Notes: generated by a model from the sequence alone, not told the origin. DNA of 55,441 nt from Parcubacteria group bacterium Gr01-1014_2 (GCA_007376425.1 VMGG01000004.1:1-55441), one strand, 5' to 3'; positions 9,539-55,346 are shown, counted from the first letter of the stretch. Numbers and translations: made by a program.

Positions 9539-9721
9539 CGAAAAGCCTCTCGGGTACAGCCATTTCGGAAACACTCGGCCCCGTACCACTAAAATAAATT
9601 AGTTTATTTTCTGTTTATCAGAATAAACCCTCGTTCCTCATTCGCCTCGCTACAAAGAACATCTCCTCTTAACGGCTCGGCTCATGAGGTTCCTCAATGG
9701 CTATACCCTGCGGGCTTTTCG
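9539..9721 (+). mobile_element. MITE-like repeat family A, copy A1
   Basis: About 183 bp. Terminal inverted repeats (TIRs) are cgaaaagcctctcgggtacagccat and atggctataccctgcgggcttttcg. Core is ctgtttatcagaataaaccctcg...ttcgcctcgcta...acggctcggctc. Confidence 0.75.
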
Positions 9722-9820
9722 TTTAAAAATTGATACGCCCTCGCCGCTTTCCATAGCCACAAACTCGCAAAAGTTCAGAAACTGATACAGCCAAGCTGGT
9801 TTCTGTTTTCGTTTGATTTC

Positions 9821-9849
9821 TTGGCATTTTTTTGTTGTATTGCTATTAT
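9821..9849 (+). promoter_or_regulatory. sigma70-like promoter of the MOSC cassette
   Basis: TTGGCA, 17-nt spacer, TATTAT, with TGC immediately upstream (extended -10 like). Confidence 0.5.
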
Positions 9850-9904
9850 GTAGATTGTTCCAAAAATCGTTCCAAGATAACTCACGATTATAGGAGGACC
9901 AGAA

Positions 9905-10522
9905 ATGACAAGGTTAGCCTTCGAACTGAAAGGACGAGTCGAAGCTGTCCTTGTGGCGGCTAACTTCGGCTCAATTCTCTCGACGTCAGTCCCGAAAATT
10001 CAGCTCATTCGCGGACACGGCGTCAGGGGCGACAACCACGCTGGCGTACGGCTTGCGGATGTCCGAGAGAGGGAGTTTCTCTCTTTCGAATTTTCTAAGG
10101 GCGTCGAGATTGCCAACCATCGAGAGTTTTCCGCCGTCTCCGCCGAGGAGCTTGCGGAAGTCGCGCAAGCGATGAATCTCTCGAAGCCAGTTCCGCACGG
10201 CTGTCTCGGCGAGAATCTGGTGTTGAGCGGCATTCCGCGACTTACCGAGCTTCCCGCCGGAACGATGTTGTTCTTTCGAAAAGACGAGAAGCGAATCAGG
10301 ACAGCCGTGTTGATGGTGTGGGCGGAAAACACGCCGTGTCAGGGACCGGGGGAAGCGATCCAAGAGAAGTTTCCGGAAATTCCCAGACTCGCGCTTCTCT
10401 TCCCGAAGTCGGCTATCGGCAAGCGCGGAATTGTCGGGAGCATTTACGCTTCCGGCAATATCCATGCGGGCGACACGGTCGTCGCAAAGGTTCCTCGTCA
10501 GCGAATCTACAATCCCGAATAG
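9905..10522 (+). CDS. MOSC-domain protein (YiiM-like)
   Basis: Contains GHGVRGDNHAG, LGENLVLSG and GIVGSIYASGNIHAGD. SD AGGAGG lies 7 nt upstream. Visibly GC-rich relative to flanks. Confidence 0.75.
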   Translation: MTRLAFELKGRVEAVLVAANFGSILSTSVPKIQLIRGHGVRGDNHAGVRLADVREREFLSFEFSKGVEIANHREFSAVSAEELAEVAQAMNLSKPVPHGCLGENLVLSGIPRLTELPAGTMLFFRKDEKRIRTAVLMVWAENTPCQGPGEAIQEKFPEIPRLALLFPKSAIGKRGIVGSIYASGNIHAGDTVVAKVPRQRIYNPE

Positions 10523-10535
10523 GGATTGCTCGATA

Positions 10536-10571
10536 GGTGGTGGTGCGACACGCTCGTGCCACCCCTTTTTT
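10536..10571 (+). terminator. GC-rich hairpin plus T-run after the MOSC gene
   Basis: ggtggtggtgcgacacgctcgtgccacc followed by ccttttttatt. Confidence 0.6.
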
Positions 10572-10622
10572 ATTGAAAGAACTTTTTATCATCTATTCAC
10601 TATAAAATTAAACAGTTTCCAG

Positions 10623-10872
10623 AGCGAAAAGCTCGAAGGTGTATGCCTCTGAATTTTTAAATAGGGCCCGTTGGGCAATGCCTTCTCAGGAACATCCGGA
10701 GCCGAGCCGTTATAAGGAGAGGTTTTTTGTAGCGAGGCGATGGATGAGCGAGCGGTTTATTCTGATAAACAGAAAATGATAGAATTATTAAAACTGTATG
10801 AGGCCGAGCGTTTCCTGAAAGGCGTTGCCCAATAAAGGGCCCGAAGACCTACACCCGAGGATAGCTTTTCGC
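10623..10872 (-). mobile_element. family A copy A2 (variant ends, inverted relative to A1)
   Basis: Core is aggaacatccggagccgagccgt...gtagcgaggcgatggatgagcgag...tattctgataaacag...gaggccgagcgtttcc. Outer TIRs are agcgaaaagct.../...agcttttcgct. Confidence 0.7.
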
Positions 10873-10930
10873 TATTAAATCTTAGAAGCCTGAAATTGGG
10901 ATTAATTTATTTCTTATAGATTTAAAACCG

Positions 10931-10961: not shown

Positions 10962-12275
10962 ATGAATATAAAAAAATCAGTATTTTTATTTTTGATTTTT
11001 TCTATTTTTTCATTTTTGACTTTCAATTTTTCCGGAGCTGATGTTCAGCAGGAAATTTCTGAAAGGGAGGAGCAGATTCAAGAATTGGAAAAACAGAAAG
11101 AAGAATTTCAAAAGCAGATTACTGAAAGACAAGGCCAGGCGAGAACCATGGAAGGGGAAATTTTTATTTTAGATACCCAAATTAAAAAGCTGCAGCTTGA
11201 AATAAGAACCCTTGATTTGGCGATTCAGCAGACTGGTTTGGAAATTGACGAAACAATTAAAAGCATTGAGGCGGCGCTTACTAAAATTGAAAAAATAAAA
11301 CAGAGCTTGGGCCAGTTTATCAGGCTACTTGATCAAAGCGATCGGGAAACACTGGTTGAGATTTTGTTTAAGAATCGCGACCTTTCGGATTTCTTCGGTA
11401 ATCTTGAAAGCATCCGCACTTCTCAAGAAAAAGCCCAGGTGACGATTAAAGACTTGAAGCAGTTAAAAATTGAACTTGAAGCAGAGCAGGAAAAACTGGA
11501 GATAAGAAAAACAGAGCAAGTTGGTTTGAGAAGTGTTCAGCAAATTCAGAAGCTTGAGGTTGATTCAAAGAAAAAGGAGAAAAATGATATTCTCAAAGTA
11601 ACTAAAGGCGAAGAGAAAAAATTCCAGGATTTGGTAAAAAAGACTGATCAAGACATAGAAAGAATAAGGGGCCAGGTGCGATTCTTGCTGGAACAGGGGA
11701 TTACTCTTGAAGAAGCTTTAAAATACGGCCAGCTGGCGGCTCAAAGAGTGGGCATTAGGCCGGCCTTTTTATTGGCGATTTTAGATGTTGAGTCAGGACT
11801 TGGAAGGAATGTTGGAACCGGGAATTGGTTGGACGATATGTATAATTGTTATCGGCGGCTTGGCAAGCTGACTAGAGCTGAAACAGAAAAAAACGCTTTT
11901 TTTGCGATAATCGGGAAGCTTGGCTTGGACGCTAATTCAGTCAGAGTTTCAAGAGCGCCAAGCTATGGCTGTGGTGGAGCGCTTGGCCCGGCTCAATTCA
12001 TTCCTTCAACCTGGCTTTTATATGAGACTCAAGTCGCCGCCTTGACTGGCCACGGCCTGCCTAATCCGTGGAGTATTGAAGATGCTTTTATGGCGGCGGC
12101 AATATACCTGGCTAATGCCGGTGCTTCCAATAAAACTCAAACCGCAGAAATCAGGGCAGCCAATGCTTATTTGAGCGGGAAAGCAAATTGCCGTCAGAGT
12201 ATTTGCCGCTATTATTCAAATTTGGTCTTACAAAAAGCGGCGGAAATAGAAAAAGATCTGCCTCGCACCTTTTAA
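10962..12275 (+). CDS. secreted coiled-coil protein with C-terminal lytic transglycosylase (SLT/MltB-like) domain
   Basis: Signal/TM, long heptad region, then LAILDVESGLGRN and GALGPAQFIPSTW. Confidence 0.6.
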   Translation: MNIKKSVFLFLIFSIFSFLTFNFSGADVQQEISEREEQIQELEKQKEEFQKQITERQGQARTMEGEIFILDTQIKKLQLEIRTLDLAIQQTGLEIDETIKSIEAALTKIEKIKQSLGQFIRLLDQSDRETLVEILFKNRDLSDFFGNLESIRTSQEKAQVTIKDLKQLKIELEAEQEKLEIRKTEQVGLRSVQQIQKLEVDSKKKEKNDILKVTKGEEKKFQDLVKKTDQDIERIRGQVRFLLEQGITLEEALKYGQLAAQRVGIRPAFLLAILDVESGLGRNVGTGNWLDDMYNCYRRLGKLTRAETEKNAFFAIIGKLGLDANSVRVSRAPSYGCGGALGPAQFIPSTWLLYETQVAALTGHGLPNPWSIEDAFMAAAIYLANAGASNKTQTAEIRAANAYLSGKANCRQSICRYYSNLVLQKAAEIEKDLPRTF

Positions 12276-12289
12276 ACGCCAACATAAAT

Positions 12290-12901
12290 TCAGTGAACTA
12301 ATTTTTTTTCTTTGGGCTCATCGTATTCCCGTAATTTCTCGGCTGGCGAGAGGCCAGCCAGTATTTTATGAGGGAAGCAGTTCCATGCCTCGGTGACTAA
12401 ATCAAGAATATTTTGGAGCTCTGATGCGTCTCCGCCGCGGTCAAACATCGCCACTATCTTCATCATATCATCAGACTCATTCTCGTAATAAATCGCATCT
12501 TTAACATCTTTCAAACTGAAATCGCTCTCGGTTTCTTTAAGCAGGCTTTCGATTTCGCTTTCAATTTCTTTTCTTTCCATTAAAATATCAGCTGGTATCG
12601 GACGAGACTGTTCTAAAATTTTCTGATAAACAGAAGAATCGGTGAATCTACTCCATAAGAATTGAAGACTTTTACTTATTGATGGCTTCATTTCATCAAT
12701 ATATTCAACATCATCCTCGCCGTTGTCATACTGCTGGAGTAGTTTTTCAATTTCAGCAACAAAATCAAGATATTGCTCTTTTGCGATTATTTGCTCTTCT
12801 TTTTGTTCTTTGGTTAGCGGTTTTCCTTCCGGGAAAATAAAGGGTATTAAGCCCTTTGATTCTACTTCGCTTGGACGCTGTGTACAATCAGAATTGTCCA
12901 C
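12290..12901 (-). CDS. acidic hypothetical protein
   Basis: 203-aa ORF with a GTG start. C-terminal AWNCFPHKILAGLSPAEK. No family recognised with confidence. Confidence 0.35.
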   Translation of the reverse strand: MDNSDCTQRPSEVESKGLIPFIFPEGKPLTKEQKEEQIIAKEQYLDFVAEIEKLLQQYDNGEDDVEYIDEMKPSISKSLQFLWSRFTDSSVYQKILEQSRPIPADILMERKEIESEIESLLKETESDFSLKDVKDAIYYENESDDMMKIVAMFDRGGDASELQNILDLVTEAWNCFPHKILAGLSPAEKLREYDEPKEKKLVH

Positions 12902-13064
12902 GCGCTCCTCGTTCGTCGAAATAAACGGCTCGGCTCGGGCGCTAAGAGAACAGTAAAGCCAGTCGCTTGTTTTCCGCGCCGCCTCGCGGACGCGCCCGTC
13001 AGAAGGAACATAGTTCTTTCAAAAGAGAGACAGTTGACACCCATGACGGGTCACTCAGACTGTC

Positions 13065-13117
13065 TCTCTTCCTACCAAAGTTTTTATTCAAGAGAATGAG
13101 GATTTTGGCAGGGAGAG
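13065..13117 (+). repeat. about 52-bp direct repeat DR1 flanking the TA-like pair
   Basis: tctcttcctaccaaagtttttattcaagagaatgaggattttggcagggaga. Preceded by the hairpin gagagacagt...actgtctctc (13024-13064). Confidence 0.7.
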
Positions 13118-13151
13118 ATCCCTTGGTTCAGAAGAGGAGAGTTCGTTAAAT

Positions 13152-13379
13152 TTATTGAGACGGAGTTAGCTTTACTGTAATTGGCAGTTCAATCGGTTGC
13201 TGTTTTAACAGCCGCTTGGCGGCGTTAAGGACAGTGAAACCCTTAATTCGTTTGGTCTTCGGGTCAAGTCTGATGACAATATCGTTATCAGCCTCCCGAG
13301 AAATTGAATTAGCCGAAGGTTTGCCTTCGGAAAAATAAAGCACATCAGCTTTTTTGTCGTAAAAGTAATAAAGTTTCAT
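13152..13379 (-). CDS. DUF2283-like small protein (putative antitoxin)
   Basis: MKLYYFYDKKADVLYFSEGKP is the typical DUF2283 N-terminus. Lies 2 nt after the upstream partner. Confidence 0.55.
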   Translation of the reverse strand: MKLYYFYDKKADVLYFSEGKPSANSISREADNDIVIRLDPKTKRIKGFTVLNAAKRLLKQQPIELPITVKLTPSQ

Positions 13380-13381
13380 GG

Positions 13382-13645
13382 TTATTTGGAGGTTAGATAA
13401 GCAGTCAAAATAAAGTTTCTGGTGCCTGTCTTAACTACGATAGCTAAGTTTCTTTGTTTATCAACCAAACCGTATAAAATGAATACATTTTTATCTGATT
13501 TGGAAGAACGAATCAATTTGGGCGCAGAAAGGATTTTAGGAAAACGCTTTTTAAACCTTTTGATTTCTGGATGGAACTTGATGATATGAGAAAATCGTTC
13601 GTCAGTCAGTTCTACCGTGCCAAAAGGAGAATCAAACCGATTCAT
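13382..13645 (-). CDS. DUF4258-like small protein (putative toxin)
   Basis: 87 aa, basic. Tightly coupled to the DUF2283-like gene. Confidence 0.45.
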   Translation of the reverse strand: MNRFDSPFGTVELTDERFSHIIKFHPEIKRFKKRFPKILSAPKLIRSSKSDKNVFILYGLVDKQRNLAIVVKTGTRNFILTAYLTSK

Positions 13646-13687
13646 TTGATTTCAGTGTAGGATACGTAAATTTTGTTGTCAACCGTG

Positions 13688-13739
13688 TTTCTTCCTACCA
13701 AAGTTTTTATTCAAAGCAATGAAGATTTTGGCAGGGAGA
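13688..13739 (+). repeat. direct repeat DR2
   Basis: tttcttcctaccaaagtttttattcaaagcaatgaagattttggcagggaga. Near-identical to DR1. Confidence 0.7.
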
Positions 13740-13750
13740 AATATCAGAAG

Positions 13751-13824
13751 TCGCCATTAAGCTGTGGAGCTGGAGAAGAAAATTCTCTCTCCTCGCCAGC
13801 CCCATAGCTTAATGGCGATTTTTT
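13751..13824 (+). terminator. long hairpin plus T6, just upstream of mnmA
   Basis: tcgccattaagct...agcttaatggcga (13-bp outer stem, with inner stem gctgg...ccagc), followed by tttttt. Confidence 0.5.
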
Positions 13825-13872
13825 GTTTCTAAAGTTGCTGGTTTTAAAAATTTATTACATAATATAAAAGTT

Positions 13873-15105
13873 ATGTTGAAGAAAGTCAGCAGGAAAAAAA
13901 CTGTATATGTAGCAATGAGCGGCGGTGTTGATTCTTCGGTTGCCGCGGCTTTATTGAAAAAAGCCTATTTAGATTCGGATGGGCGTATTTGGATTGCCGA
14001 AGGACGAAGTCCGAAGGCGCGCTATTCGTGTGCTGTTGTGGGAGTTTTTATGAAACCATACCAGCCAAGGGCTGGAATTTTCAATTTTCAATTTTCAATT
14101 TTCAATAAAGATAATTGTTTATGGAAGCAGGACAGGGAAGATGCATTGCGAGTGGCGGCGAAACTGGATATTCCGCTTTTGACCTGGGACCTGTCCAAGG
14201 AATATGAGAAACGGGTGGTGAGGTATATGATCGACGGCTATAAAAAGGGGATTACGCCAAATCCAGATGTGATGTGCAATAAGTTCATTAAGTTTGGGTT
14301 ATTTTTGGAAAAAGCGTTGGAGATGGGCGCGGATTATATCGCGACCGGACACTATGTAAGGAAACAAACGACTTACAACAAACAACAAACAACTGGAGGG
14401 GAAAAAACTAAAAAGTCGTCAGTCGTAAGTTATAAGTTGTTAGTTGGCATTGATGAAAACAAAGACCAGTCATATTTTTTATACACTTTGACGCAGGAAC
14501 AATTGAGTCGTTGTCTCTTCCCGGTAGGGGACTGGAACAAAAAAGAAGTCAGAAAAATGGCTAAGAAATTCGGTTTGCCTAATTGGGATAAAAAAGACAG
14601 CCAAGGCGTTTGTTTTGTGGGGCCTTTGGAGGTTAAAGAGTTTTTAAAAAGAAATATCAAATCAAAAAGGGGATTGGTTTTAAGGAAAAGCGACCGTAAA
14701 ATTTTGGGGGAGCATGATGGGGTGTGGTATTATACCATCGGCCAGAGGCACGGTTTTGGCTTAAATGGCGGCCGGCCTTATTACGTAGTAGATAAAGATA
14801 CTAAAAAGAATATTCTTTATGTAGATGATTTAAAAAATCCCAAATCCCAAGCACCAAATCCCAAACAAATTCTAAATCCCAAAATCCAAATAAGAGAACT
14901 CAATTGGATAAGAAAACAGAGAGTACCACTAAATTGTAAAGTGAAGACTAGATACAGGCAAAAAGATATTGATTGCACCATTATAAAGAATGGTTCGGAT
15001 AAGGCTTTGGTGGAAATAAAAGAAAATAATCTGGCTATTGCGCCGGGCCAATCAGCCGTGTTCTACAAAGGGAACGAAGTTTTAGGCGGTGGGATTATAG
15101 TATAA
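13873..15105 (+). CDS. mnmA: tRNA-specific 2-thiouridylase MnmA, with several in-frame insertions
   Basis: Contains VAMSGGVDSSVAA, NPDVMCNKFIKFG, ATGHYVR, KDQSYFLY and DSQGVCFVG. Confidence 0.9.
   Translation: MLKKVSRKKTVYVAMSGGVDSSVAAALLKKAYLDSDGRIWIAEGRSPKARYSCAVVGVFMKPYQPRAGIFNFQFSIFNKDNCLWKQDREDALRVAAKLDIPLLTWDLSKEYEKRVVRYMIDGYKKGITPNPDVMCNKFIKFGLFLEKALEMGADYIATGHYVRKQTTYNKQQTTGGEKTKKSSVVSYKLLVGIDENKDQSYFLYTLTQEQLSRCLFPVGDWNKKEVRKMAKKFGLPNWDKKDSQGVCFVGPLEVKEFLKRNIKSKRGLVLRKSDRKILGEHDGVWYYTIGQRHGFGLNGGRPYYVVDKDTKKNILYVDDLKNPKSQAPNPKQILNPKIQIRELNWIRKQRVPLNCKVKTRYRQKDIDCTIIKNGSDKALVEIKENNLAIAPGQSAVFYKGNEVLGGGIIV
14076..14103 (+). repeat. perfect heptamer array (aattttc)x4 inside mnmA
   Basis: Read directly. 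Encodes IFNFQFSIF. Preceded by the hairpin ccagccaagggctgg. Confidence 0.85.
14832..14892 (+). repeat. family E element inserted in-frame in mnmA
   Basis: aaaaatcccaaatcccaagcaccaaatcccaaacaaattctaaatcccaaaatccaaata. Encodes KNPKSQAPNPKQILNPKIQI. Confidence 0.75.
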
Positions 15106-19840: not shown

Positions 19841-19952
19841 CAATTATTATGATTAGATGTCGAATTAGATTTTTATTCGTATAATTAGTATCAATTAGTA
19901 TTAGTATCGATACCAATATACGAATTATACTAATGATACTAATGTAAGAAAT

Positions 19953-20717
19953 ATGGAAATATTAGTTGGAGAGCCAAAAGTAGTTCATTATGAGAAAAAC
20001 CGAGCTGTTTTTGAAATCAGTCCGCTTTACGCCGGATACGGCGTGACCCTTGGCAATTCATTAAGGCGCGTACTACTTTCTTCGATGGAAGGCGCGGCCG
20101 CAGTAAAAATCAAAATTGATGGCGTGGCTCATGAATTCTCCACCGTTAACGGCGTTTTGGAAGACGTAGTTGACATAATTTTGAATTTGAAGAAAATCAG
20201 GTTTAAATTATCCGGCGTTGATTCAGCTAAAGTTACTTTGAATGCCAAAGGCGAGAAAGAAATTCACGCCGGCGACTTAAAAGCTCCCTTCGGAGTTGAG
20301 GTGGTCAACCCAGACCAGATTATCGCCACTATTACCGATAAGAAAGCAGAGTTTAATATGGAAATAGAAGTTGAGAGGGGGATTGGTTATATGCCGGTTG
20401 AACAGAAGCAGAAAGAAAAACTTTCAGTTGGAGAGATAGCCATTGATGCCATATTTAATCCGGTCAGAAAGGTAAGCTTCCGAGTTGAAAATATCAGAGT
20501 CGGCGAGAGGACGGATTTTAACAAGCTTTTCGTTGACGTTGAGACTGATGGGAGTATTACCCCTCAAGAAGCGCTAAAAAGAGCAGTTGGAATTTTAATG
20601 GAGCAGTTTAAAGCAGTCGGTGAGAGCGGCAGTTTGCAGATTGAAGAAAAAAGTTCAACCGAAGGAGTTGTCGAGGCGCCGAAGAGAAAAAGAGGAAGAC
20701 CGCGGAAAGAGAAATAG
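19953..20717 (+). CDS. rpoA: RNA polymerase alpha subunit, N-terminal domain only, with AT-hook-like C-terminal tail
   Basis: 254 aa. Has the alpha-NTD (GNSLRRVLLSS). Ends ...EAPKRKRGRPRKEK. No alpha-CTD. Confidence 0.9.
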   Translation: MEILVGEPKVVHYEKNRAVFEISPLYAGYGVTLGNSLRRVLLSSMEGAAAVKIKIDGVAHEFSTVNGVLEDVVDIILNLKKIRFKLSGVDSAKVTLNAKGEKEIHAGDLKAPFGVEVVNPDQIIATITDKKAEFNMEIEVERGIGYMPVEQKQKEKLSVGEIAIDAIFNPVRKVSFRVENIRVGERTDFNKLFVDVETDGSITPQEALKRAVGILMEQFKAVGESGSLQIEEKSSTEGVVEAPKRKRGRPRKEK

Positions 20718-21945: not shown

Positions 21946-22009
21946 ACCCACGACATCGCATTGGGCAAAAAGAAAAACACTGCCAGAAGATGAATAAAAA
22001 CCTTGACTG

Positions 22010-22018
22010 TGCTATAAT
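22010..22018 (+). promoter_or_regulatory. extended -10 (TGCTATAAT) 6 nt before an ATG (leaderless-type arrangement)
   Basis: ccttgactgtgctataatcaaattATG. Confidence 0.45.
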
Positions 22019-22024
22019 CAAATT

Positions 22025-22213
22025 ATGAGTAAAACATACATAACAGTCACGGCAAGTATTTTTACCGTGATAGGTCTTCTTCACCTGGTCAGAGTTATTT
22101 ATGGCTGGGAGGCGGTGATCGGCGCTTGGGAGATTCCGATGTGGGCGAGCTGGCTGGCAGTTTTGGTGGCCGGCAGTCTGGCCGTCAAGGGTTGGGAATT
22201 GAGAAGGAGATAA
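22025..22213 (+). CDS. small 2-TM membrane protein, GC-richer than its surroundings
   Basis: 62 aa: MSKTYITVTASIFTVIGLLHL...WLAVLVAGSLAVKGW. Confidence 0.45.
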   Translation: MSKTYITVTASIFTVIGLLHLVRVIYGWEAVIGAWEIPMWASWLAVLVAGSLAVKGWELRRR

Positions 22214-24592: not shown

Positions 24593-24615
24593 TTAACTGC
24601 ATAACATCAATAAAA

Positions 24616-27167: not shown

Positions 27168-27179
27168 AAAGCCTTAATC

Positions 27180-40215: not shown

Positions 40216-40255
40216 ACTGCGCCGGCGAAGCCCGAAAAAAAAGTTTTTAAAATAA

Positions 40256-41976: not shown

Positions 41977-43379
41977 TTAAGTTTTTAAATACCCTATCCG
42001 GGCAAAAAGAAGAATTTATTCCGATAAAAAACAAAAAAGTCGGTATTTTTGTCTGCGGGCCGACGGTTTACGACTGGCCCCACATCGGCCACGCTCGGAC
42101 TTACGTTATTTTTGACGTTATCGTTAAATACCTGCGCTACAAGGGCTATAAAGTTAAATTTGTGATGAATATTACTGACATTGACGATAAAATAATTGAC
42201 CGGGCAAAAGAAGAAAAGAAAACATGGAAAGAGGTAGCCGAGTTTTACGAAAAGGATTTTATGAAAGACATTGCAGAGTTAGGCATTAACAGCGTCGATA
42301 AATTCGCCAGAGCCACCGAACACACCGAACAAATCATTAAACAAATAAAAGTTCTTATTGAAAAAGGTTATGCTTATCAAACTGAAGATGGAATCTATTT
42401 TGACATTTCAAAATTTGATGATTACGGCAAACTTTCCAAAAGAACTGTTGAGCAGGCCGAAGACGCTGTTTCAAGAATTGACGAATCAATAAATAAAAGA
42501 AATAAAGGCGATTTTGTTTTATGGCGGTTGTCAAAAGAGGGTGAACCAGCGTGGGATTTTGAAACAGGAATAACTAATTCGGCGGGCCGGCCTGGCTGGC
42601 ATATCGAGGATACAGCCATTTCTGAAAAATATCTTGGCCAGCAATATGAAATCCATGGCGGCGGCCAAGATTTAATATTCCCCCATCATGAAGCTGAAAT
42701 CGCCCAAGCCGAAGCCGCTTCAGGGGAAAAGCCTTTCGTAAAATACTGGCTTCATTCTGGTTTTCTTACTATTAACGGCCAAAAAATGTCAAAATCTCTT
42801 AAAAATTTTATAACCATCAAGGATATTTTAAAAGGATACTTGCCAGAAGCAGTAAGATTTATGATTTTAAGCACCCATTACCGCTCCCCTATTGATTACA
42901 AAGAAGACTTGATTAAACAATCAGAAGCCGGAATTCAAAGAGTTTTGGAATTAGTCAACAAGCTTGAGTTGATAAAAAAATCAGGCCCTGAAGAAAAAAA
43001 AGTAGAGATCGACGAGATTATAAAGAATGTCCAAATGGAATTTAATGCCAAAATGGACGATGATTTTAATACTCCCGAAGCAGTGGCAGCTTTATTTAAT
43101 TTCATCAGAATAGTAAACAGTTTTATTGATAATCAAAATTTAGACAGAAAATCAGCTGAAAAAGCTATTGGGGTTTTAAAAGAAATAGACGAGGTCTTTG
43201 GAATTCTTCCTAAAAAAGAATCCGGAATACCGGAAAAAATCTTTGAATTAGTCCAAAATCGCGAGAAGTTAAGAAAAGAAAAAGCTTGGCTTGAAGCTGA
43301 TAAAGTCAGGGATGAAGTTAAATCTCTTGGTTATTCCATTGAAGACACGCCCTATGGGCCGTTAGTTAAGAAGTCTTAG
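41973..43379 (+). CDS. cysS: cysteinyl-tRNA synthetase
   Basis: Contains CGPTVYDWPHIGHARTY, GWHIEDT and KMSKSL. Confidence 0.95.
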   Translation: MIKFLNTLSGQKEEFIPIKNKKVGIFVCGPTVYDWPHIGHARTYVIFDVIVKYLRYKGYKVKFVMNITDIDDKIIDRAKEEKKTWKEVAEFYEKDFMKDIAELGINSVDKFARATEHTEQIIKQIKVLIEKGYAYQTEDGIYFDISKFDDYGKLSKRTVEQAEDAVSRIDESINKRNKGDFVLWRLSKEGEPAWDFETGITNSAGRPGWHIEDTAISEKYLGQQYEIHGGGQDLIFPHHEAEIAQAEAASGEKPFVKYWLHSGFLTINGQKMSKSLKNFITIKDILKGYLPEAVRFMILSTHYRSPIDYKEDLIKQSEAGIQRVLELVNKLELIKKSGPEEKKVEIDEIIKNVQMEFNAKMDDDFNTPEAVAALFNFIRIVNSFIDNQNLDRKSAEKAIGVLKEIDEVFGILPKKESGIPEKIFELVQNREKLRKEKAWLEADKVRDEVKSLGYSIEDTPYGPLVKKS

Positions 43380-43564
43380 CGAAAACCTTCCCTCGGTATA
43401 TGTCTTCGGGAACCGCTCGTCCAGCCCAGCGAGCGGGACTCGCTGTACTTACGACCTCGCAAAGTCAAGACTCGTTCTGCTTCGCAGAACTTTAAACAAT
43501 CTTGACTTACCCTGCTGCTCGGTCTCCAGAACTTCCCGAGAGACATATCCCTCGCGGTTTTCGC
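43379..43564. mobile_element. MITE-like repeat family D
   Basis: TIRs are gcgaaaaccttccctcggtatatgtcttcggga and ttcccgagagacatatccctcgcggttttcgc. Inner hairpin is aagtcaaga...tcttgactt. The TIR tip resembles family A. Confidence 0.6.
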
Positions 43565-43603
43565 TAATCTACCTTTCCCAAAGTGAAGGGTATTAATTCA
43601 AAA

Positions 43604-43861
43604 CGAAAAGCCCGCAGGGCACAGCCATTAGTTTCACTCCGGCCGCAGGGGTATAATCAATTTCTGAGCCTGGGGAGTCGTCTTAGAAAATAGCCGGTAT
43701 CTTTATGAAGAATTGCCGATGACAAATCTATGGTGGAGGTACCCTGATTTGTCGGCAATTCGAATAAAGTGCCGCGCTATTTTCAAGAAGGGGCACCAAA
43801 CGAAGAAATTGATTGTACCCCGAGAGACGGTTCCGAGATGGCTGTGCCCGAGAGGCTTTTC
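43604..43861 (-). mobile_element. family A ends only (A7 shell) enclosing a family B copy
   Basis: Left end is cgaaaagcccgcagggcacagccatt. Right end is gatggctgtgcccgagaggcttttc. The interior is B4. Confidence 0.6.
43649..43820 (-). mobile_element. family B copy B4 (inverted; type-2 inner hairpin)
   Basis: The reverse complement of its right flank matches the B3 left flank. Core is gaattgccgatgacaaatc...gatttgtcggcaattc. Confidence 0.7.
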
Positions 43862-43893
43862 AAATAATTCTCAACACTCTATCCCCTACTAAA

Positions 43894-43924
43894 AGTAAGT
43901 AGTAAGTAGTAAGTAGTAAGTAGT
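43894..43924 (+). repeat. perfect heptamer array (agtaagt)x4 abutting the dnaB start codon
   Basis: Read directly: agtaagt x4, then agt, then ATG. Confidence 0.85.
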
Positions 43925-45265
43925 ATGAATCAGATCGATAAATTGCCGCCGCAAAATCTTGAAGCTGAAAAATCCGTCCTCGGCTCTATTTTAATTGACA
44001 AAGATTCTTTAGAAAAAGTAATAGATATCTTAAGGCCCGATGATTTTTACGGCCGCCAGCACCAGCTAATTTTTGGAGCGATGGTCAGTCTTTTAGAAAA
44101 AAATGAACCGATAGATATTTTAACCGTGACTAATAAGCTTGAAGAATTCAAAGACCTGGAAAATGCCGGCGGGGCCGCTTATCTAACTTCTTTACTGGGC
44201 GTCACCCCGACTTCAGCTCATATTTTAAATTACGGGAAAATAGTTCAGCGGAAGAAAATTTTAAGAGACCTGATTGATTCGGCTCATAAAATTGTCAGCC
44301 TTGGCCATCAGGAAGAAGAAACTATCGAAAGAATCCTGGACCAGGCCGAGCAAAAGCTTTTTGCCGTTTCCCAGCGGTCAATCTCCCAAGAATTCTTAGC
44401 TTTAAAAGAAGGACTTCAGGAGGCTTTTGAACGGTTAGAGAGGCTTCATAAAGGCGATGGCGCTTTGCGGGGCCTTTCAACTGGCTTTGTTGATTTAGAT
44501 AATATCCTGGCTGGATTGCAACGTTCTGATTTGATTATTGTTGGTGCAAGGCCGTCCCTTGGCAAAACTACTTTGGCTTTGGATATGGCCAGAAATGTTG
44601 CCAGAAAAGAAAATATTGGAGTCGGTATTTTTAGTTTGGAAATGTCAAAAGATCAGGTGATAGATAGAATCTTGGCCTCCGAAGCCGGGATCGGTCTTTG
44701 GAAAATGAGGACTGGACATCTTTCGAGCGCCGGCGATTTTAATGATTTCTCAAAAATTTCAATTGCCTTAAACAACCTGTCTCAAGTTCCGATTTTCGTT
44801 GACGATACCCCATCCCCTACTATTTTGCAGATAAGAGCGATGGCGAGACGCTTGAGGTCAAAAAATAATTTAGGTCTTTTAGTAATTGACTATCTTCAAT
44901 TAGTCCAGCCTAGATCCGACATTGATGGCTATGTTCAGCAGGTAACTGATGTGGCGAATTCTTTAAAAGGATTAGCTCGTGAGCTGAATATTCCGGTTAT
45001 TGCCGTTTCCCAGTTATCAAGAGCAGTGGAAGCAAGGCCAGACCAAAGGCCAAGACTTTCTGATTTAAGAGAGTCTGGCGGGATTGAGCAGGCCGCGGAT
45101 TTGGTGATGTTTATTCATCGGGAAGATAAAGTCAGACGGGATTCTGATCGAAAAAACATTGCTGAAATAATCATTGCCAAGCACCGCAACGGCCCCACCG
45201 GCGTAATTGAGCTTTACTTTGACGAAGAAGAGGTGAGTTTTAAGAACTTAGCGAAAAATATTTAG
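43925..45265 (+). CDS. dnaB: replicative DNA helicase DnaB
   Basis: Contains LPPQNLEAEKSVLGSIL, GARPSLGKTT and SQLSRAVE. Confidence 0.95.
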   Translation: MNQIDKLPPQNLEAEKSVLGSILIDKDSLEKVIDILRPDDFYGRQHQLIFGAMVSLLEKNEPIDILTVTNKLEEFKDLENAGGAAYLTSLLGVTPTSAHILNYGKIVQRKKILRDLIDSAHKIVSLGHQEEETIERILDQAEQKLFAVSQRSISQEFLALKEGLQEAFERLERLHKGDGALRGLSTGFVDLDNILAGLQRSDLIIVGARPSLGKTTLALDMARNVARKENIGVGIFSLEMSKDQVIDRILASEAGIGLWKMRTGHLSSAGDFNDFSKISIALNNLSQVPIFVDDTPSPTILQIRAMARRLRSKNNLGLLVIDYLQLVQPRSDIDGYVQQVTDVANSLKGLARELNIPVIAVSQLSRAVEARPDQRPRLSDLRESGGIEQAADLVMFIHREDKVRRDSDRKNIAEIIIAKHRNGPTGVIELYFDEEEVSFKNLAKNI

Positions 45266-45278
45266 AAACCCTGAATCG

Positions 45279-45456
45279 GGTGTAATCAATTTCTTCGTTT
45301 GGTGCCCCTTCTTGAAAATAGCACGTCACTTTGCTCGAATTGCCGATAACTAGGGCGTGTCTACCCCTTTATCCCCTAGCTTATAAGCGGCAATTCTTCG
45401 CAAAGATACCGGCTATTTTCTAAGACGACTCCCCACGCTCAGAAATTGATTACACC
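45279..45456 (+). mobile_element. family B copy B3 (full length)
   Basis: TIRs are ggtgtaatcaatttct and agaaattgattacacc. Has the type-1 inner hairpin. Confidence 0.75.
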
Positions 45457-45757: not shown

Positions 45758-45843
45758 GTTTTGAAAAATAAAGCTTTCCTCGGCTATACCCCTCGCCGAT
45801 CTTTTTTTTCAAATTTACGTTTTAACATACTATAGCATATTAA

Positions 45844-45884
45844 GCCGAGCGTTTCCGAAATGGCTATACCCGAGAGGCTTTTCG
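45844..45884 (-). repeat. family A right-end fragment (A8)
   Basis: gccgagcgtttccgaaatggctatacccgagaggcttttcg. A solo-end-like cggctatacccctcg lies at 45781-45795. Confidence 0.6.
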
Positions 45885-45886
45885 CC

Positions 45887-46198: not shown

Positions 46199-46200
46199 AG

Positions 46201-46273
46201 CGACCCCAATGGGATTCGAACCCATATTGCCGGAATGAGAATCCGACGTCCTAAACCATTAGACGATGGGGCC
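46201..46273 (-). tRNA. tRNA-Glu (anticodon CUC)
   Basis: GGCCCCATCGTCTAATGGTTTAGGACGTCGGATTCTCATTCCGGCAATATGGGTTCGAATCCCATTGGGGTCG folds as a cloverleaf by hand. It has a 7-bp acceptor stem, a TTCGAAT T-loop and anticodon loop TTCTCAT. No encoded CCA. Confidence 0.85.
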
Positions 46274-49407: not shown

Positions 49408-49525
49408 TGTAGCTACAAATAGTTTAGGAGTTTTTTAAGACTTTATCCAGTTTGGCGTCCCATTGTATTGCTTTAATAACATTTTGTATATAGAATTAAT
49501 TAAAACAGTACCTTGGAGGTAGGAT

Positions 49526-49885
49526 ATGGCGATAAAATGGACTGACCGCGAAGAAGAAGAGCTTCAGGAGATTATAGAAGCGCTTATGGGAAACTGTGAA
49601 GAATTTCTGGAAGGCACCGATTCAGAAAGCTGATTTCTTACTTACTGGACCGACCAGAGTGGAAAAACCACCTATATCAGATGTTCTGATGGAGATTGTG
49701 CTTCAATTTCCTCGGCCGAATTCTGGGAAATTAAAAAACAAATCGGCAAAGAGTGCCTTCTTTGCGCCGGTCCTCTGATGCCCATTTTTGACTCTGAGTC
49801 CAAGCCGGTTCTTTACCTGGTTTGCGACCGATGCGAATCAGTTCACATAGTCGCTTCCGGCGAACTTTGCCTATTCGCCAATTAG
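49526..49885 (+). CDS. Cys-rich (Zn-ribbon-like) ORF interrupted by a single in-frame TGA at 49631-49633
   Basis: SD GGAGGT lies 5 nt upstream of the ATG. A 35-codon ORF, then TGA, then 83 more in-frame codons with no start codon near their beginning (CSDGDC, CLLC, CDRC). A terminator follows. Confidence 0.4.
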
Positions 49886-49908
49886 CCTGGGACTATGTTG
49901 CCCAGGCT
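49884..49908 (+). terminator. hairpin terminator
   Basis: agcctggg-actatgtt-g-cccaggct. Confidence 0.55.
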
Positions 49909-52291: not shown

Positions 52292-52338
52292 GCGGGCAAA
52301 AAATTTCCTCCCCTTGAACCCCTCCATTTTTTGCCCGC
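52292..52338. other. perfect 13-bp-stem hairpin downstream of murA
   Basis: gcgggcaaaaaat, 21-nt loop, attttttgcccgc. Confidence 0.6.
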
Positions 52339-52584: not shown

Positions 52585-52744
52585 TGTTCTAAATACGCAG
52601 CAGAATTGAACGCAACGAACTCTGAATTTGGAGATGAACGGGTTTGCTCAACCAGCCCCGCCTTTGGCGGGACTGGTCTCGCTTTGGCGGCGGCTTCGCC
52701 GCCGGTATTCGCCAAATTGAAGCGGATTTTAATACTTTCGGGGG
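52585..52744 (+). repeat. inverted repeat R, copy a (pairs with 54031-54190)
   Basis: ...acgaactctgaatttggagatgaacgggtttgctcaaccagccccgcctttggcgggactggtctcgctttggcggcggcttcgccgccggtattcgccaaattgaagcggattttaatactttcggggg. Confidence 0.8.
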
Positions 52745-52778
52745 AATTCAATTTTTTCTTTTTTCAAAAACTGTTAAT

Positions 52779-54239
52779 ATGAATAATATGAATGTGAAAA
52801 ATTGTGCAATTTATACTCGGGTCTCCACCGATAACCAAGCGGAAAAAGAATTTTCATCTTGCGAAGCGCAAGAACAGAAAATCCGCTCGTATATTTCGAG
52901 TCAGGATAACTGGCAAGTTTTCAAAACATATAATGATGGCGGATTTTCTGGAGCAACCCTGGAGCGTCCCGCACTCCAACAGTTACTTTCAGATTTAAAA
53001 AAAGAAAAAATTGATGTGGTTTTGGTCTACAAAATTGATCGGCTCACCCGTTCGCCGAAAGATTTTTACCAACTGATTGAATCTTTTGAGCAAGCAAAAA
53101 TTGATTTTATTTCCATTACTGAAAGATTTGACACCTCAACTCCAGCCGGAAGATTATTGAGAAATATCATGCTAACTTTTTCTCAATTTGAGCGAGAGCT
53201 AACAAGCGAGAGAACGAAAGATAAAATGTTAGAGCGAGCCAGAAAGGGTTTAGCTAATGGTGGATATACTCCTTATGGCTACTCGCGACAAGAGAAAAAG
53301 TTAGTAATAAGTCCGAAAGAAGCCGAAGAAATAAAATCAATTTTTGAAACTTATGTTGAAACTGGTTCATTGGCCGAGACCTATCGAATTTTGAAAAGCA
53401 AAAATGTAAAAAGTAAGTTTGGCAAAAATTTCTCAAAAACAATTATCGCCTATCTTTTACGAAATCCTGTTTATATTGGAAAGATAAAGCACAATAACCA
53501 GATTTACGATGGAATCCATGAGCCGATAATTTCGGAAGAAATTTTTGCCATTGCTCAAAAAATTCATAAGGAAAAGCAGAAAAATTTTAGAGTGTACAAA
53601 AATTTCCTGTTCGGCGGACTGATAAAGTGCGAGGAGTGCGGCTCAAATATGACTTCTTTCTTCAGCAACAAGCATAGAAATGGAGAATTCAAACGCAGAT
53701 ATTACTATTACCGATGTACTTCTACAACCAAATTTGACTGGCAATCTTGTTCTGTAAAACAAGTATCCGCCGAACGATTGGAAAATTTTTGTCTGGAAAA
53801 TTTAGAGCGAATTTCAGTTGATAAAAGCTATATTGAAAATCTTGTTTTTCGCCTAAATCATAGCTCTGACGCTGGATACCGAGTTGGACACGAACTAACT
53901 GATTCATGTTCTAAATTTTCCACCGAAACCATTTCGGATACTCTAAAATTTTTCCTCAATAAACTCAAAACCACCAAAGGAATTGAAAGAAATCTTTTTG
54001 CTAAAAAGTTTCTTTCAAACATTTTCTACTCCCCCGAAAGTATTAAAATCCGCTTCAATTTGGCGAATACCGGCGGCGAAGCCGCCACCAAAGCGAAACC
54101 AGCCCCGCCATTGGCGGGGCTGGTTGAGCGAACCCTCTCATCTCCAAAATCCGAGTTCGTATCGTCAAACATTGCTGTGTATCTTGAAGATAGTCCGAAC
54201 CCATTTCGCCGCCTTCGGCGGCGGTGGCCAAAACTCTGA
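52779..54239 (+). CDS. large serine recombinase
   Basis: Contains CAIYTRVSTDNQ, YKIDRLTRS, a recombinase domain, a Zn ribbon (CEECGS...YYYYRC) and a coiled coil. The last ~70 codons lie in repeat R copy b. Confidence 0.9.
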   Translation: MNNMNVKNCAIYTRVSTDNQAEKEFSSCEAQEQKIRSYISSQDNWQVFKTYNDGGFSGATLERPALQQLLSDLKKEKIDVVLVYKIDRLTRSPKDFYQLIESFEQAKIDFISITERFDTSTPAGRLLRNIMLTFSQFERELTSERTKDKMLERARKGLANGGYTPYGYSRQEKKLVISPKEAEEIKSIFETYVETGSLAETYRILKSKNVKSKFGKNFSKTIIAYLLRNPVYIGKIKHNNQIYDGIHEPIISEEIFAIAQKIHKEKQKNFRVYKNFLFGGLIKCEECGSNMTSFFSNKHRNGEFKRRYYYYRCTSTTKFDWQSCSVKQVSAERLENFCLENLERISVDKSYIENLVFRLNHSSDAGYRVGHELTDSCSKFSTETISDTLKFFLNKLKTTKGIERNLFAKKFLSNIFYSPESIKIRFNLANTGGEAATKAKPAPPLAGLVERTLSSPKSEFVSSNIAVYLEDSPNPFRRLRRRWPKL

Positions 54240-54272
54240 AAAATTGATTGGAAAATCTGAATCGCAATTCTG
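54031..54272 (-). repeat. inverted repeat R, copy b (left 160 bp pairs with copy a; right ~99 bp pairs with copy c)
   Basis: cccccgaaagtattaaaatccgcttcaatttggcgaataccggcggcgaagccgcc...gtgtatcttgaagatagtccgaacccatttcgccgcc...gaatcgcaattctg. Confidence 0.8.
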
Positions 54273-54358
54273 GTCATCAGCACTTTGTCCTACACAACGG
54301 ACAGGCAGCTTAACGCCCTTTTACGTGAGTTACCTAATGAGACTCACGGGCGAAGTGG

Positions 54359-54580
54359 TTAGGACGCTCTTTCGATCTTGCCGATACATTCGCCGCGCCC
54401 CGCTTTTATTACTTCTTCCACCTGCCGGCGGGCATCATCTTCTGAACGTGCCCGGACTTTCATCACGTACTCGTATTTTGAGTCGGGCTCAGGTACGAAG
54501 GCGTAATCATCTATTTCCGGACAATACACCTCCGAATAGTCGCAACCAACGACCGTCACCACAAAAAGTTGCTTCTTCAT
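54359..54580 (-). CDS. hypothetical 73-aa protein (GC-rich cassette, distal gene)
   Basis: MKKQLFVVTVVGCDYSEVYCPEIDDY... SD AAGGAG lies 8 nt upstream. Confidence 0.5.
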   Translation of the reverse strand: MKKQLFVVTVVGCDYSEVYCPEIDDYAFVPEPDSKYEYVMKVRARSEDDARRQVEEVIKAGRGECIGKIERAS

Positions 54581-54624
54581 CGCGATTTCTCCTTTTGGAA
54601 AGTGGCTCGCTAGGGCCGTGTTGG

Positions 54625-55032
54625 TTAACGGATGGAACGGATGGACTGATGCGCTGTCGCTTCGCTTCCGTCTTGAGCGAAGCTGAACTCGAGAATGTGG
54701 TACGGCTCTTTCACGCCGGTACGATACGCACTGACTTCGAGAGTCAACGCGCGGTGCCAGCGGAGAGTCAAACACACTTCAACTCGATGAGCTTCAGCGA
54801 AAGCTCTCTGTGTATCACCACTCTCAGAGTGGCAACCACAGACGAACTTATCAAGCCCGTCGTGAGGATACAATCTCAAGTTCTGGACCACGACACGACC
54901 TTGGGGATCGGTACCGAAAGCCACGAACTTGGCGAAAAAATTCAGAGCGGCGCGATATGCAATCGACCACTCCGTGTTCTTCTTGAGTGCGTCCTTCACT
55001 GTCTTGTCAACGAACAATGAAACTTTCTTCAT
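54625..55032 (-). CDS. hypothetical 135-aa protein (GC-rich cassette, proximal gene)
   Basis: MKKVSLFVDKTVKDALKKNTEW... The SD and leader are near-identical to those of the downstream gene. Confidence 0.5.
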   Translation of the reverse strand: MKKVSLFVDKTVKDALKKNTEWSIAYRAALNFFAKFVAFGTDPQGRVVVQNLRLYPHDGLDKFVCGCHSESGDTQRAFAEAHRVEVCLTLRWHRALTLEVSAYRTGVKEPYHILEFSFAQDGSEATAHQSIRSIR

Positions 55033-55095
55033 CGCGATTCTCCTTTTGGAATAGGCTCGCTAGGGCCTATAATGCCGGAATGGCACTATGTTTAT

Positions 55096-55124
55096 ACTAT
55101 ACACCTATCAGTATGATTTGTCAA
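55096..55124 (-). promoter_or_regulatory. sigma70 promoter TTGACA-17-TATAGT (minus strand) for the two-gene cassette
   Basis: Minus strand reads ttgaca aatcatactgataggtg tatagt. A second TTGACA lies 11 nt upstream. Confidence 0.6.
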
Positions 55125-55247
55125 GTTTTTGTCAAAAACCAACAAAAAAGCCCTATTTTAGGCCATTTTATGAGGATATTAAAATTTTATTTTTTTCCTA
55201 TGGTTCGAGCCGATATTTTTATTAGGTTCTTTGGCAGTTTTTTGATT

Positions 55248-55346
55248 CAGAATTGCGATTCAGATTTTCCAATCAATTTTTCAGAGTTTTGGCCATCGCC
55301 GCCGTAGGCGGCGAAATGGGTTCGGACTATCTTCAAGATACACAGC
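55248..55346 (+). repeat. inverted repeat R, copy c (pairs with 54174-54272)
   Basis: cagaattgcgattcagattttccaatcaatttttcagagttttggccatcgccgccgtaggcggcgaaatgggttcggactatcttcaagatacacagc. Confidence 0.8.

Follow-up and report, generated by a model that had tools for sequence, protein, structure and literature searches.

Small GC-rich accessory genes led by Shine-Dalgarno sites interrupt the SD-less backbone of a Parcubacteria contig

Gene content of the window and its GC-rich cassettes

The window analysed here, i.e. an entire contig of 55,441 bp, belongs to the genome of an ultra-small groundwater bacterium of the Parcubacteria (Paceibacteria type; Candidate Phyla Radiation, CPR); the exact protein of its MOSC-domain gene is found in the source record named 'Parcubacteria group bacterium Gr01-1014_2'. 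A sequence-only reading had singled out at least eight GC-rich segments, of which it listed eight (hereafter cassettes), among backbone genes lacking Shine-Dalgarno (SD) sites. It viewed them as self-contained units with their own SD sites and, for several of them, promoters and terminators, delivered or shuffled by interspersed repeats and conceptually close to integrons. Our analysis indicates a case of horizontal acquisition with an unusual contrast of translation signals, not an integron-like machine.

Cassette 1 (9905-10522, + strand, 56.5% GC) is the MOSC-domain gene, with a GC content at third codon positions (GC3) of 0.65 and the SD AGGAGG. It lies in insertion block 1 (9484-10914), which also includes the terminator hairpin of a permease gene and two copies, A1 and A2, of a putative miniature inverted-repeat transposable element (MITE). 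Cassette 2 (22025-22213, +, 50.8% GC) encodes a 62-aa membrane protein at the rpsI/PEGA hot spot; it has no SD, and a TATAAT box lies 6 nt ahead of its ATG, an arrangement of the leaderless type. Cassette 3 (27713-27916, -, 46.1% GC) shares insertion block 3 (27164-28253) with a second SD-led open reading frame (ORF; 27409-27576, -), the repeat B2 (27165-27347) and a perfect 26-nt inverted repeat (27406-27431 and 28114-28139). Insertion block 4 (35456 to about 36650, +) holds cassette 4 (35580-36560, 50.4% GC), whose product carries four tandem XRE-type helix-turn-helix domains (multi-HTH) and whose SD, GGAGA, is degraded in comparison with the GGAGGA of homologues. Cassette 5 (37533-37856, -, 54.0% GC) encodes a 107-aa orphan protein and is led by the SD AAGGAG. 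Cassette 6 (39791-40123, 49.2% GC) encodes a 110-aa membrane protein, also with the SD AAGGAG, and lies with a hairpin (40173-40215) and the repeat A6 (40245-40438) in insertion block 6 (39623-40446, +). Cassette 7 (49526-49885, 45.8% GC, within an insertion at 49478-49891, +) has the SD GGAGGT; its gene is broken by two frameshifts and is therefore a pseudogene in the window, which corrects the sequence-only reading. Lastly, cassette 8 (54359-55032, -, 51.6% GC, within 54174-55346) is an operon of two genes, 55032-54625 (135 aa) and 54580-54359 (73 aa), enclosed by 99-nt inverted repeats with 98% identity (54174-54272 and 55248-55346). As had been seen, AAGGAG occurs twice in this operon, each gene having its copy of a duplicated ribosome-binding module.

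Cassettes 2, 3, 5, 6, 7 and 8 have no match in Pfam, PHROGs or NCBIfam; the protein 8a of cassette 8 represents a real family (31 cluster representatives). An inversion of the cassette 8 segment was considered and found to be unsupported, the sole other contig covering it (L175) having the same orientation. In addition to the eight cassettes, an insertion that had escaped the sequence-only reading is located at 12263-13893; it carries an SD-led ORF of 203 aa (12290-12901, -), a DUF2283 gene and an 87-aa ORF. The latter two are flanked by 61-nt direct repeats (13059-13119 and 13682-13742, 87% identical) and possibly constitute a toxin-antitoxin-like pair, which is AT-rich and SD-less, unlike the eight cassettes.

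All eight cassettes exceed the background in GC content, as had been judged by eye. However, the excess is modest for two of them (46.1% and 45.8%), and the background is not in the mid-30s as supposed, since GC content is 40.1% for the whole window and 39.4% for the segments conserved with relatives. The compositional step expected for foreign DNA is nevertheless borne out by GC3 and tetranucleotide usage. Thus, GC3 ranges from 0.54 to 0.65 for eight cassette genes and from 0.27 to 0.46 for 42 backbone genes, with zero overlap (Mann-Whitney p = 2e-9), and GC content at first codon positions (GC1) is likewise higher in the cassettes. Moreover, tetranucleotide usage gives r = 0.23 between the pooled cassettes and the backbone, whereas length-matched backbone chunks reach 0.94-0.96. 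The cassettes therefore show, relative to the host core, the atypical composition by which horizontally acquired genomic islets are recognized. The remaining GC-rich patches of the window correspond to interspersed repeats. Non-coding RNA was ruled out as the origin of the GC-rich patches: ARAGORN and Rfam searches retrieved a tRNA-Glu alone, and neither the repeats nor the cassettes gave a match at gathering or E-value thresholds.

Start regions of cassette and backbone genes

Starts were scored by the pairing energy of positions -20 to -3 with ACCUCCUUU. Of the ten cassette starts, all but 22025 pair with the anti-SD, with energies between -6.4 and -11.8 kcal/mol, whereas the first starts of backbone genes have a median of about -0.7 kcal/mol and lie mostly above -4; an energy of -7 or lower is seen at only 3.4% of random positions. 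A motif scan detected a strong SD with ATG at the 5' end of an ORF solely at 9905, 27916, 27576, 37856, 39791, 55032 and 54580, and weaker sites at 35580 (GGAGA) and 12901. The strong SD attributed to cassette genes hence holds for most starts, but not for 35580, which is weak, nor for 22025, already noted as lacking one. The other SD-led starts of convincing ORFs, i.e. 12901 (ORF 12290-12901) and the new 5' end of rplI (28206/28215), are apparent exceptions to the SD-less backbone and are both located within window-specific inserted DNA. Gene starts associated with weaker SD scores at 52644 and 43546 are unconvincing. No alternative core ribosome-binding motif was found upstream of backbone genes, where A and T prevail and G is depleted between positions -13 and -1. 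Start regions also differ in structure: they are weakly structured in core genes (29% GC) and more structured in cassettes (43% GC), with mean folding energies over positions -30 to +30 of -5.1 kcal/mol for backbone starts and -9.9 kcal/mol for cassette starts (p = 7e-5). Composition and SD thus split the genes into two classes.

Promoters and terminators do not contribute to this split and were rejected as discriminating traits. The consensus promoters reported for the cassettes do exist (TTGACA-17-TATAGT at 37933-37905 ahead of cassette 5 and at 55124-55096 ahead of cassette 8, and TTGGCA-17-TATTAT at 9821-9849), but they do not separate the classes because backbone genes are preceded by sigma-70-type sites of equal quality. 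Similarly, hairpins are found 3' of MOSC, 39791-40123 and 49526-49885, and the MOSC terminator hairpin is kept in four genomes with compensatory changes in its stem, whereas a generic terminator scan gave chance level only.

The contrast extends beyond the window. It was searched for in 58 SD-poor loci of Parcubacteria type (the window being excluded), ORFs being considered SD-led at -8.5 kcal/mol or lower. SD-led ORFs exceed the GC content of their locus by 2.3 points, versus 0.1 for the rest (p = 6e-8), and among ORFs whose GC content is 6 points or more above that of the locus, 25% are SD-led, compared with 8.8% among the others (odds ratio 3.5, p = 2e-5). No such association is seen with CCUCC, a control motif matched in composition. 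Hence, the association of SD with GC-richness is a tendency of the whole clade and not a quirk of one contig.

Accessory status of the cassettes

Relatives anchored on DnaB are Parcubacteria or Paceibacteria metagenome-assembled genomes (MAGs), whose DnaB is 91% (L002), 86% (L003) and 86% (L004) identical to that of the window. Further syntenic relatives were reached through RpsD (L082) and through orthologues of the permease encoded at 8329-9486 (L168 and L169), each presence/absence comparison involving one to three relatives. The block 9484-10914 (A1, MOSC and A2) corresponds to 16 bp in L169 and to a different small gene, encoding a DUF1059 protein, in L168. Likewise, 12263-13893 (SD-led ORF and DUF2283 pair) is reduced to 73 bp in L169 and 27164-28253 (cassette 3 and B2) to 73 bp in L082. 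In place of 21948-22213 (cassette 2), L082 harbors an unrelated 3-kb insert with two strongly SD-led, GC-rich ORFs. The insertion carrying cassette 4 is missing in L003 and L004, while cassette 5 is missing in L003 and present in L004 (4059-4346, SD AGGAGGAG, 50% GC). The insertion 39623-40446 (cassette 6 and A6) is missing in L002, with a junction 2 nt past the efp stop codon. Finally, L003 has an intact copy of cassette 7 at another locus (19872-20240; 122 aa, SD-led).

As anticipated by the sequence-only reading, each testable cassette is thus missing or replaced in syntenic relatives. Since these relatives show exact intergenic junctions without the cassettes, the latter are accessory, strain-variable insertions. 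Furthermore, the same intergenic spots harbor different insertions in different relatives, which suggests shared hot spots; for instance, SD-led ORFs are found downstream of dnaB in L003 and L004, and a second SD-led ORF is found at the def/fmt hot spot in L004. As to hallmarks of integration, cassettes 1-7 showed no integrase, tRNA or direct repeats in their flanks. Cassette 8 alone adjoins a serine recombinase gene, and the sole tRNA gene of the window (46200-46273) is not beside a cassette.

The large serine recombinase (52780-54239, +) has a backbone-like GC content and no SD, and is bracketed by 159-nt inverted repeats (52587-52745 and 54030-54188, 87% identity). The last 70 codons or so of its ORF consist of the right arm of this repeat followed by the 99-nt repeat of cassette 8.

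Cassette families in other genomes

The MOSC protein has 170 homologues with 57-91% identity, those with names being mostly from CPR bacteria, and its gene is strongly SD-led in all six distinct contexts, including the window. In L162, L164, L166 and L178, it is found in unrelated contexts, with a GC content 8-12 points above that of the locus. It is the sole strongly SD-led gene called at the first three of these loci, a few small ORFs near it bearing an SD as well in L178. In L177, a contig of 66% GC labelled Binatia, a homologue with 63% identity also has an SD and adjoins conjugation genes (PrgI, TraC-like and TraG-type), its five called neighbours being mostly SD-less. The GC3 of MOSC varies with the host, from 0.93 in L177 through 0.65 in the window and 0.61 in a further host down to 0.49 in L166, a gradient that looks like graded amelioration. 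Nucleotide homology among the copies is confined to the leader, SD, ORF and terminator, i.e. to 9867-10586 in the window, which by this measure is the transferable unit. A shared recombinase partner was also considered and rejected: the serine recombinase encoded near MOSC in L164 is only 24% identical to that of the window, being of the same superfamily yet no specific partner.

The names attached to the multi-HTH homologues of cassette 4 are likewise CPR. An identical multi-HTH protein is encoded in two contexts, inside a common 2.2-kb element (98.7% identity). In L170 (3300-3380), a tRNA gene is bordered on its 5' side by this element, whose left flank is different in L171. The multi-HTH leader, ...GGCTTGAAAATGGAGGAAT..ATG, is conserved and has been degraded to GGAGAATT in the window. 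In L173, whose host has 52% GC, the gene has the GC content of its host, yet it is the sole strongly SD-led gene there; therefore, the SD is a property of the family.

More generally, an AGGAG core with a spacing of 5-8 nt is kept in six MOSC contexts, three multi-HTH contexts, three cassette 5 homologues and both copies of cassette 7, while spacers and surrounding leaders have diverged and the proteins are 43-83% identical. Such conservation argues for selection on the SD core and hence for a ribosome able to read it. This conclusion conflicts with the report that the anti-SD is missing in about half of Parcubacteria, the motif being detected in only 48% of them (PMC9297842). Altogether, relatives lacking the cassettes and the occurrence of MOSC and multi-HTH in unrelated CPR contexts with their leader and SD (and, for MOSC, the terminator) support the earlier view of horizontally acquired, self-contained units. 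These units have the distribution of islets, being absent from syntenic relatives and having homologues in different contexts elsewhere.

Interspersed repeats

The existence of the repeat families described by the sequence-only reading was confirmed. With a length of about 190 bp, family A is represented by six full copies (75-88% identity) plus solo ends. Its terminal inverted repeats (AAAAGCCCGCAGGGTATAGCCATTGAGGAAC) span about 35-45 nt, with two end subtypes that co-vary at both termini, and it folds as a long hairpin (z = -6.2) without any match to an Rfam family. Family B has four copies. Both are short, non-coding, dispersed and ended by terminal inverted repeats, as MITEs are. They are also polymorphic at orthologous sites: A4 is missing in L082, A5 in L004, and A6 and B4 in L002, while in L176, a contig from a near-identical strain, def has an additional family A copy at its 3' end. 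The window encodes no transposase, and no target-site duplication could be called, the junctions being in divergent sequence. The exact core motif of family A was not found in any of 80 DnaB-anchored Parcubacteria loci; one diverged copy was detected by BLAST in L082.

A1 (9539-9736, -) and A2 (10652-10844, +, with type-2 ends) surround cassette 1. No cassette accompanies B1 (24276-24417) and A3 (24419-24596), which both lie on the + strand between mreB and a glycosyltransferase gene, a spot at which L082 has a family A copy in the opposite orientation. A4 (25208-25403, -) is inserted in frame in the glycosyltransferase ORF (24616-25962), and A5 is located at 37982-38177 (+). In a composite upstream of dnaB (43369-43864), missing in L002, B4 (43650-43820, -) is surrounded by family A ends (43583-43629 and 43816-43863). 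Downstream of dnaB are B3 (45263-45456) and a solo family A end (45838-45885), both +, so that repeats bracket this core gene. The motif GGTATAGCC(A/G)(A/T)T occurs nine times at repeat termini, versus 0.09 expected. Just inside repeat ends, a 48-nt segment, GC(C/T)ACAAACT..CAAAAGTTCA..GATAC..CCAAGCTGGTTT, is found upstream of cassettes 1 (9756-9803, +) and 3 (28068-28115, -), with about 40 of its 48 positions in common. L176 has 127 extra bp at 45456/45457 of the window.

As proposed, five of the eight cassettes co-localise with repeats (hypergeometric p about 0.003 for roughly 50 intergenic intervals). In contrast, their delivery or shuffling by the repeats is not supported, given the occurrence of MOSC without family A in the four other distinct contexts scanned and of cassette 5 in L004 without A5, the repeats flanking dnaB and the three cassettes with no repeat close by. 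A residual link is possible for cassettes 1, 3 and 8, and shared permissive sites are a simpler explanation than repeats acting as the vehicle.

Origin and translation of the accessory genes

These data are probably explained by accessory islets of horizontal origin, drawn from a gene pool that CPR bacteria share and carrying their own SD, the repeats being separate mobile DNA and not their vehicle. The AT-rich conserved core would initiate translation without SD pairing, from A/T-rich and weakly structured leaders or from leaderless starts. The islets, small (0.3-1.4 kb) and mostly made of single genes, would be scattered at permissive intergenic hot spots, and their source would be a pool common to CPR bacteria that reaches GC-rich, SD-using bacteria and their conjugative elements. 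Every gene family would bring its own leader and SD, and in some cases a terminator, the promoter being local. GC-richness would reflect the incompletely ameliorated composition of the pool, while the SD would be kept by selection within the family; a likely reason for its retention, we infer, is that a GC-richer, structured start region cannot use the structure-free route of the core. MITE-like families A and B and other inverted repeats would accumulate and rearrange at the same hot spots as a distinct kind of mobile DNA.

Several points weigh against this explanation. For any single cassette, gain is not formally separable from loss in the relatives. No integration mechanism was found, the junctions of A4 and of the MOSC block being in divergent sequence where no target-site duplication is callable. 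The dichotomy is imperfect, since cassette 2 has no SD, the inserted ORF 12290-12901 is SD-led yet has 39% GC, and the DUF2283 pair is accessory but AT-rich and SD-less. No 16S rRNA 3' end was present among the 161, then 175, fetched loci searched; neither 16S rRNA nor rpsU was found in the window or in 178 fetched loci. The taxonomy of homologues relies on a few source names, and the labels 'Binatia' and 'Anaplasmataceae' are those of MAG bins, which may be wrong. Finally, the significant co-localisation of cassettes and repeats leaves some mechanistic link possible.

Such a link would be strongest if the repeats were a delivery system, the cassettes being the cargo of MITE-bounded composites or of a larger element with family A ends, moved in trans by a transposase or recombinase whose gene lies elsewhere. 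MOSC does lie between two inverted family A copies in a 1.43-kb block that is missing as a whole in L169, cassette 3 between perfect 26-nt inverted repeats with the family A end motif GGTATAGCC and cassette 8 between its 99-nt repeats beside the serine recombinase. The 48-nt segment common to the upstream regions of cassettes 1 and 3 lies just inside a repeat end, and polymorphism relative to L176 at the strain level indicates that the repeats were recently active. However, family A is missing from the MOSC loci L162-L167, and a repeat scan of three of these loci detected no inverted repeat in the flanks, so that the same cargo is not found elsewhere with the same flanking repeats, as would be the case for a composite transposon. 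Moreover, family A was not found in the 80 DnaB-anchored loci, cassette 5 occurs without A5, cassettes 2, 4 and 7 have no adjacent repeat, and repeats are also found solitary, around dnaB and inside a coding gene. Considering also that A1 and A2 are just 77% identical, with different end subtypes, and that no target-site duplication is definable, we regard delivery by repeats as quite unlikely. It is also unlikely, though to a lesser degree, that the SD motifs are non-functional relics, i.e. that the lineage has lost the anti-SD and that the cassettes still carry the sites of SD-using donors. The low frequency of the anti-SD among Parcubacteria, with losses that overlap the group lacking uL1 (PMC9297842), is consistent with such relics, as are the core genes of the window devoid of any SD, the degraded SD of cassette 4 (GGAGA versus GGAGGA) and the decay of cassette 7 into a pseudogene. 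Relics would nevertheless not be expected to keep the AGGAG core and its 5-8 nt spacing across families despite diverged spacers and leaders, nor would multi-HTH keep its SD in a CPR host of 52% GC in which its composition has equilibrated and its neighbours are SD-less.

Acquisition itself could be questioned if the cassettes were ancestral and had been lost in the sampled relatives, their GC-richness being due to amino-acid or expression constraints. The small number of relatives per comparison (one to three), the syntenic position of cassette 5 in L004 and the raised GC1 of cassettes are compatible with this scenario, which appears very improbable given that the same families occur in unrelated genomic contexts elsewhere, an identical multi-HTH protein in two contexts and cassette 7 at another locus in L003. 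Besides, GC3, beyond GC1 and GC content at second codon positions, is far outside the backbone range, and the junctions are exactly at gene ends. Lastly, an assembly chimera or contamination, joining foreign GC-rich fragments to a Parcubacteria contig through shared repeats, is hardly credible. Two short independent contigs (L001 and L175) do stop inside flanking repeats and therefore provide no link between cassette and backbone. On the other hand, L176, a 23.9-kb contig from another assembly, matches window positions 37406-45456 at 100%, cassettes 5 and 6 included; cassette 4 and four repeat loci are likewise embedded there in the backbone context known from the window. Cassettes 4, 5 and 6 are therefore not chimeric. 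Furthermore, flanking repeat copies are 75-88% identical and thus too divergent to mislead an assembler, and analogous SD-led, GC-rich genes are found at the same hot spots in relatives.

Horizontally acquired islets carrying their own SD lead to a broader proposal, which we put forward tentatively and hold to be possible rather than likely: Paceibacteria-type Parcubacteria may run two initiation regimes in each cell, one for an SD-independent core and one relying on a portable, selected SD carried by mobile genes. If so, the SD would mark the flexible genome in the clade, ribosomes would retain, or conditionally expose, a working anti-SD, and the SD would be needed by GC-richer, structured transcripts and would work in any recipient. 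CPR bacteria are uncultivated, and their rules of translation and gene flow are inferred from genomes alone. In this respect, the contrast between an SD-less core and SD-led accessory genes offers a means of recognizing recent acquisitions in Parcubacteria MAGs. Conserved SDs in mobile genes would argue that SDs are still read by the ribosome or, alternatively, that genes flow in very quickly. In addition, start-site models trained on core genes would mis-handle accessory genes, and vice versa.

Comparison with known systems

Horizontal transfer among Patescibacteria is documented, 83% of the inferred transfers into this group coming from other Patescibacteria (PMC12455944). The genomic islets described there (PMC12455944) resemble the cassettes in being strain-variable DNA with deviant GC content, GC3 and tetranucleotide usage, and in having homologues mostly in Patescibacteria with occasional links to non-CPR donors or mobile elements. 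However, the units of the window are tiny (single genes, 0.3-1.4 kb) and located at scattered intergenic hot spots rather than forming multi-gene islands. They are also GC-richer than their host, whereas acquired DNA is usually AT-richer, and their conserved SD sets them apart from the SD-less core of the genome.

For the translation contrast, the closest functional analogue is provided by Bacteroidia. Their core is SD-less with A-rich, unstructured leaders, and a small minority of genes, such as rpsU in Flavobacterium johnsoniae, keeps a strong conserved SD; SDs are ignored by their ribosomes, and rpsU is the one gene to keep an SD (PMC7797042, PMC9976891, PMC13000453). However, bS21, bS18 and bS6 sequester the anti-SD that Bacteroidia possess, and the SD is carried there by an autoregulated core gene, whereas SD genes of the window are mobile and accessory. 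Our literature search found no paper on MITEs in CPR bacteria or on an SD contrast between core and accessory genes.

As in integrons, the cassettes are small, mostly single-gene mobile units of diverse, frequently unknown function whose content varies among close relatives. However, they are dispersed over 45 kb on both strands without any tandem array, and at least three of them have their own near-consensus promoters. A self-comparison of cassette 3' ends revealed no shared attC-like element, family-specific terminator hairpins being found instead. No adjacent IntI is encoded either; the sole tyrosine recombinase of the window (30256-31269; Phage_integrase and SAM-like N-terminal domains, XerC/D-like), judged by its domains and distance, is located at least 2-4 kb from any cassette. 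The absence of IntI and attC sites noted by the sequence-only reading is thus borne out in the window, where none of the three integron-defining features tested was found, and the integron-like organisation it suggested is not supported.

MITE-bounded composites are known, for instance integron mobilization units and MITE-flanked resistance genes. The MOSC block, whose cargo is placed between two inverted non-coding elements with terminal inverted repeats, and cassette 3, placed between 26-nt repeats, have a similar layout. They differ from such composites by the 77% identity of the flanking MOSC copies, the lack of any callable target-site duplication and the presence of the cargo elsewhere without repeats. 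Rickettsia palindromic elements are palindromic repeats located in frame within protein-coding genes. A4, which lies in frame in a coding gene and keeps the frame, is reminiscent of them, but it belongs to an unrelated repeat family and phylum, and the window has one clear in-frame copy plus a shorter palindromic insert (36760-36825).

Genes remodelled by insertions and other features

Small insertions appear to erode or remodel genes of this reduced genome, as illustrated by the in-frame MITE of the glycosyltransferase gene, by rplI, whose 5' end was replaced, and by def, whose 3' end shows a deletion at the strain level. The segment 25183-25434, which includes A4, adds about 69 residues in comparison with the L082 orthologue, with the frame kept, in the linker between the GT4 Rossmann domains. 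In rplI (28206-28622), the first 22 codons or so of ribosomal protein L9 have been replaced by the 1.09-kb insertion 27164-28253. The L082 gene begins with MKIILTENIKGLGQIGETVEVKSG, which is missing in the window copy, whose ORF starts in inserted DNA downstream of a GGTGGAGGG motif. This may be a decay of L9 in progress, in a clade that often lacks bL9. At 37405/37406, the window lacks 243 bp of L176 (3022-3263), i.e. the native 3' terminus of def with its stop codon, together with a further family A copy nested between CGAGGGGTATAGCCGATTTC inverted ends; as a result, the def ORF extends to 37505 and its C-terminus is altered relative to L176.

Beside the insertion of cassette 6 and A6, 40445-40621 (-) is the remnant of a membrane-protein gene (58-aa ORF), from which 278 bp are missing relative to L002 (2107-2570). 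The ORF 36686-37048, a small conserved gene, carries at 36760-36825 an insert of about 60 nt with two GC-rich palindromes (CCCGATCGCATTTTGCGATTGGGG and CCCCGATATCGCAAAGCGATATCGGG); the frame is open and the insert is missing in the L003 and L004 orthologues.

Just past murA, positions 52292-52338 form a perfect 13-bp stem (GCGGGCAAAAAAT...ATTTTTTGCCCGC) with a 21-nt loop containing two CCUCC motifs. This hairpin has no Rfam match, is 98% identical to L004 (17513-17558), versus about 77% for the neighbouring DNA, and possibly represents a conserved small RNA or a regulatory hairpin. A heptamer tandem, (TAGTAAG)x4, lies directly upstream of the dnaB start codon (43896-43924). A 57-nt CA-rich repeat, AAAATCCCAAATC...CCAAA, is found downstream of two unrelated genes (5624-5680 and 14834-14890, 86% identical), and AAAATCCAAAAT-like runs occur at 25546-25593 and 38538-38571.

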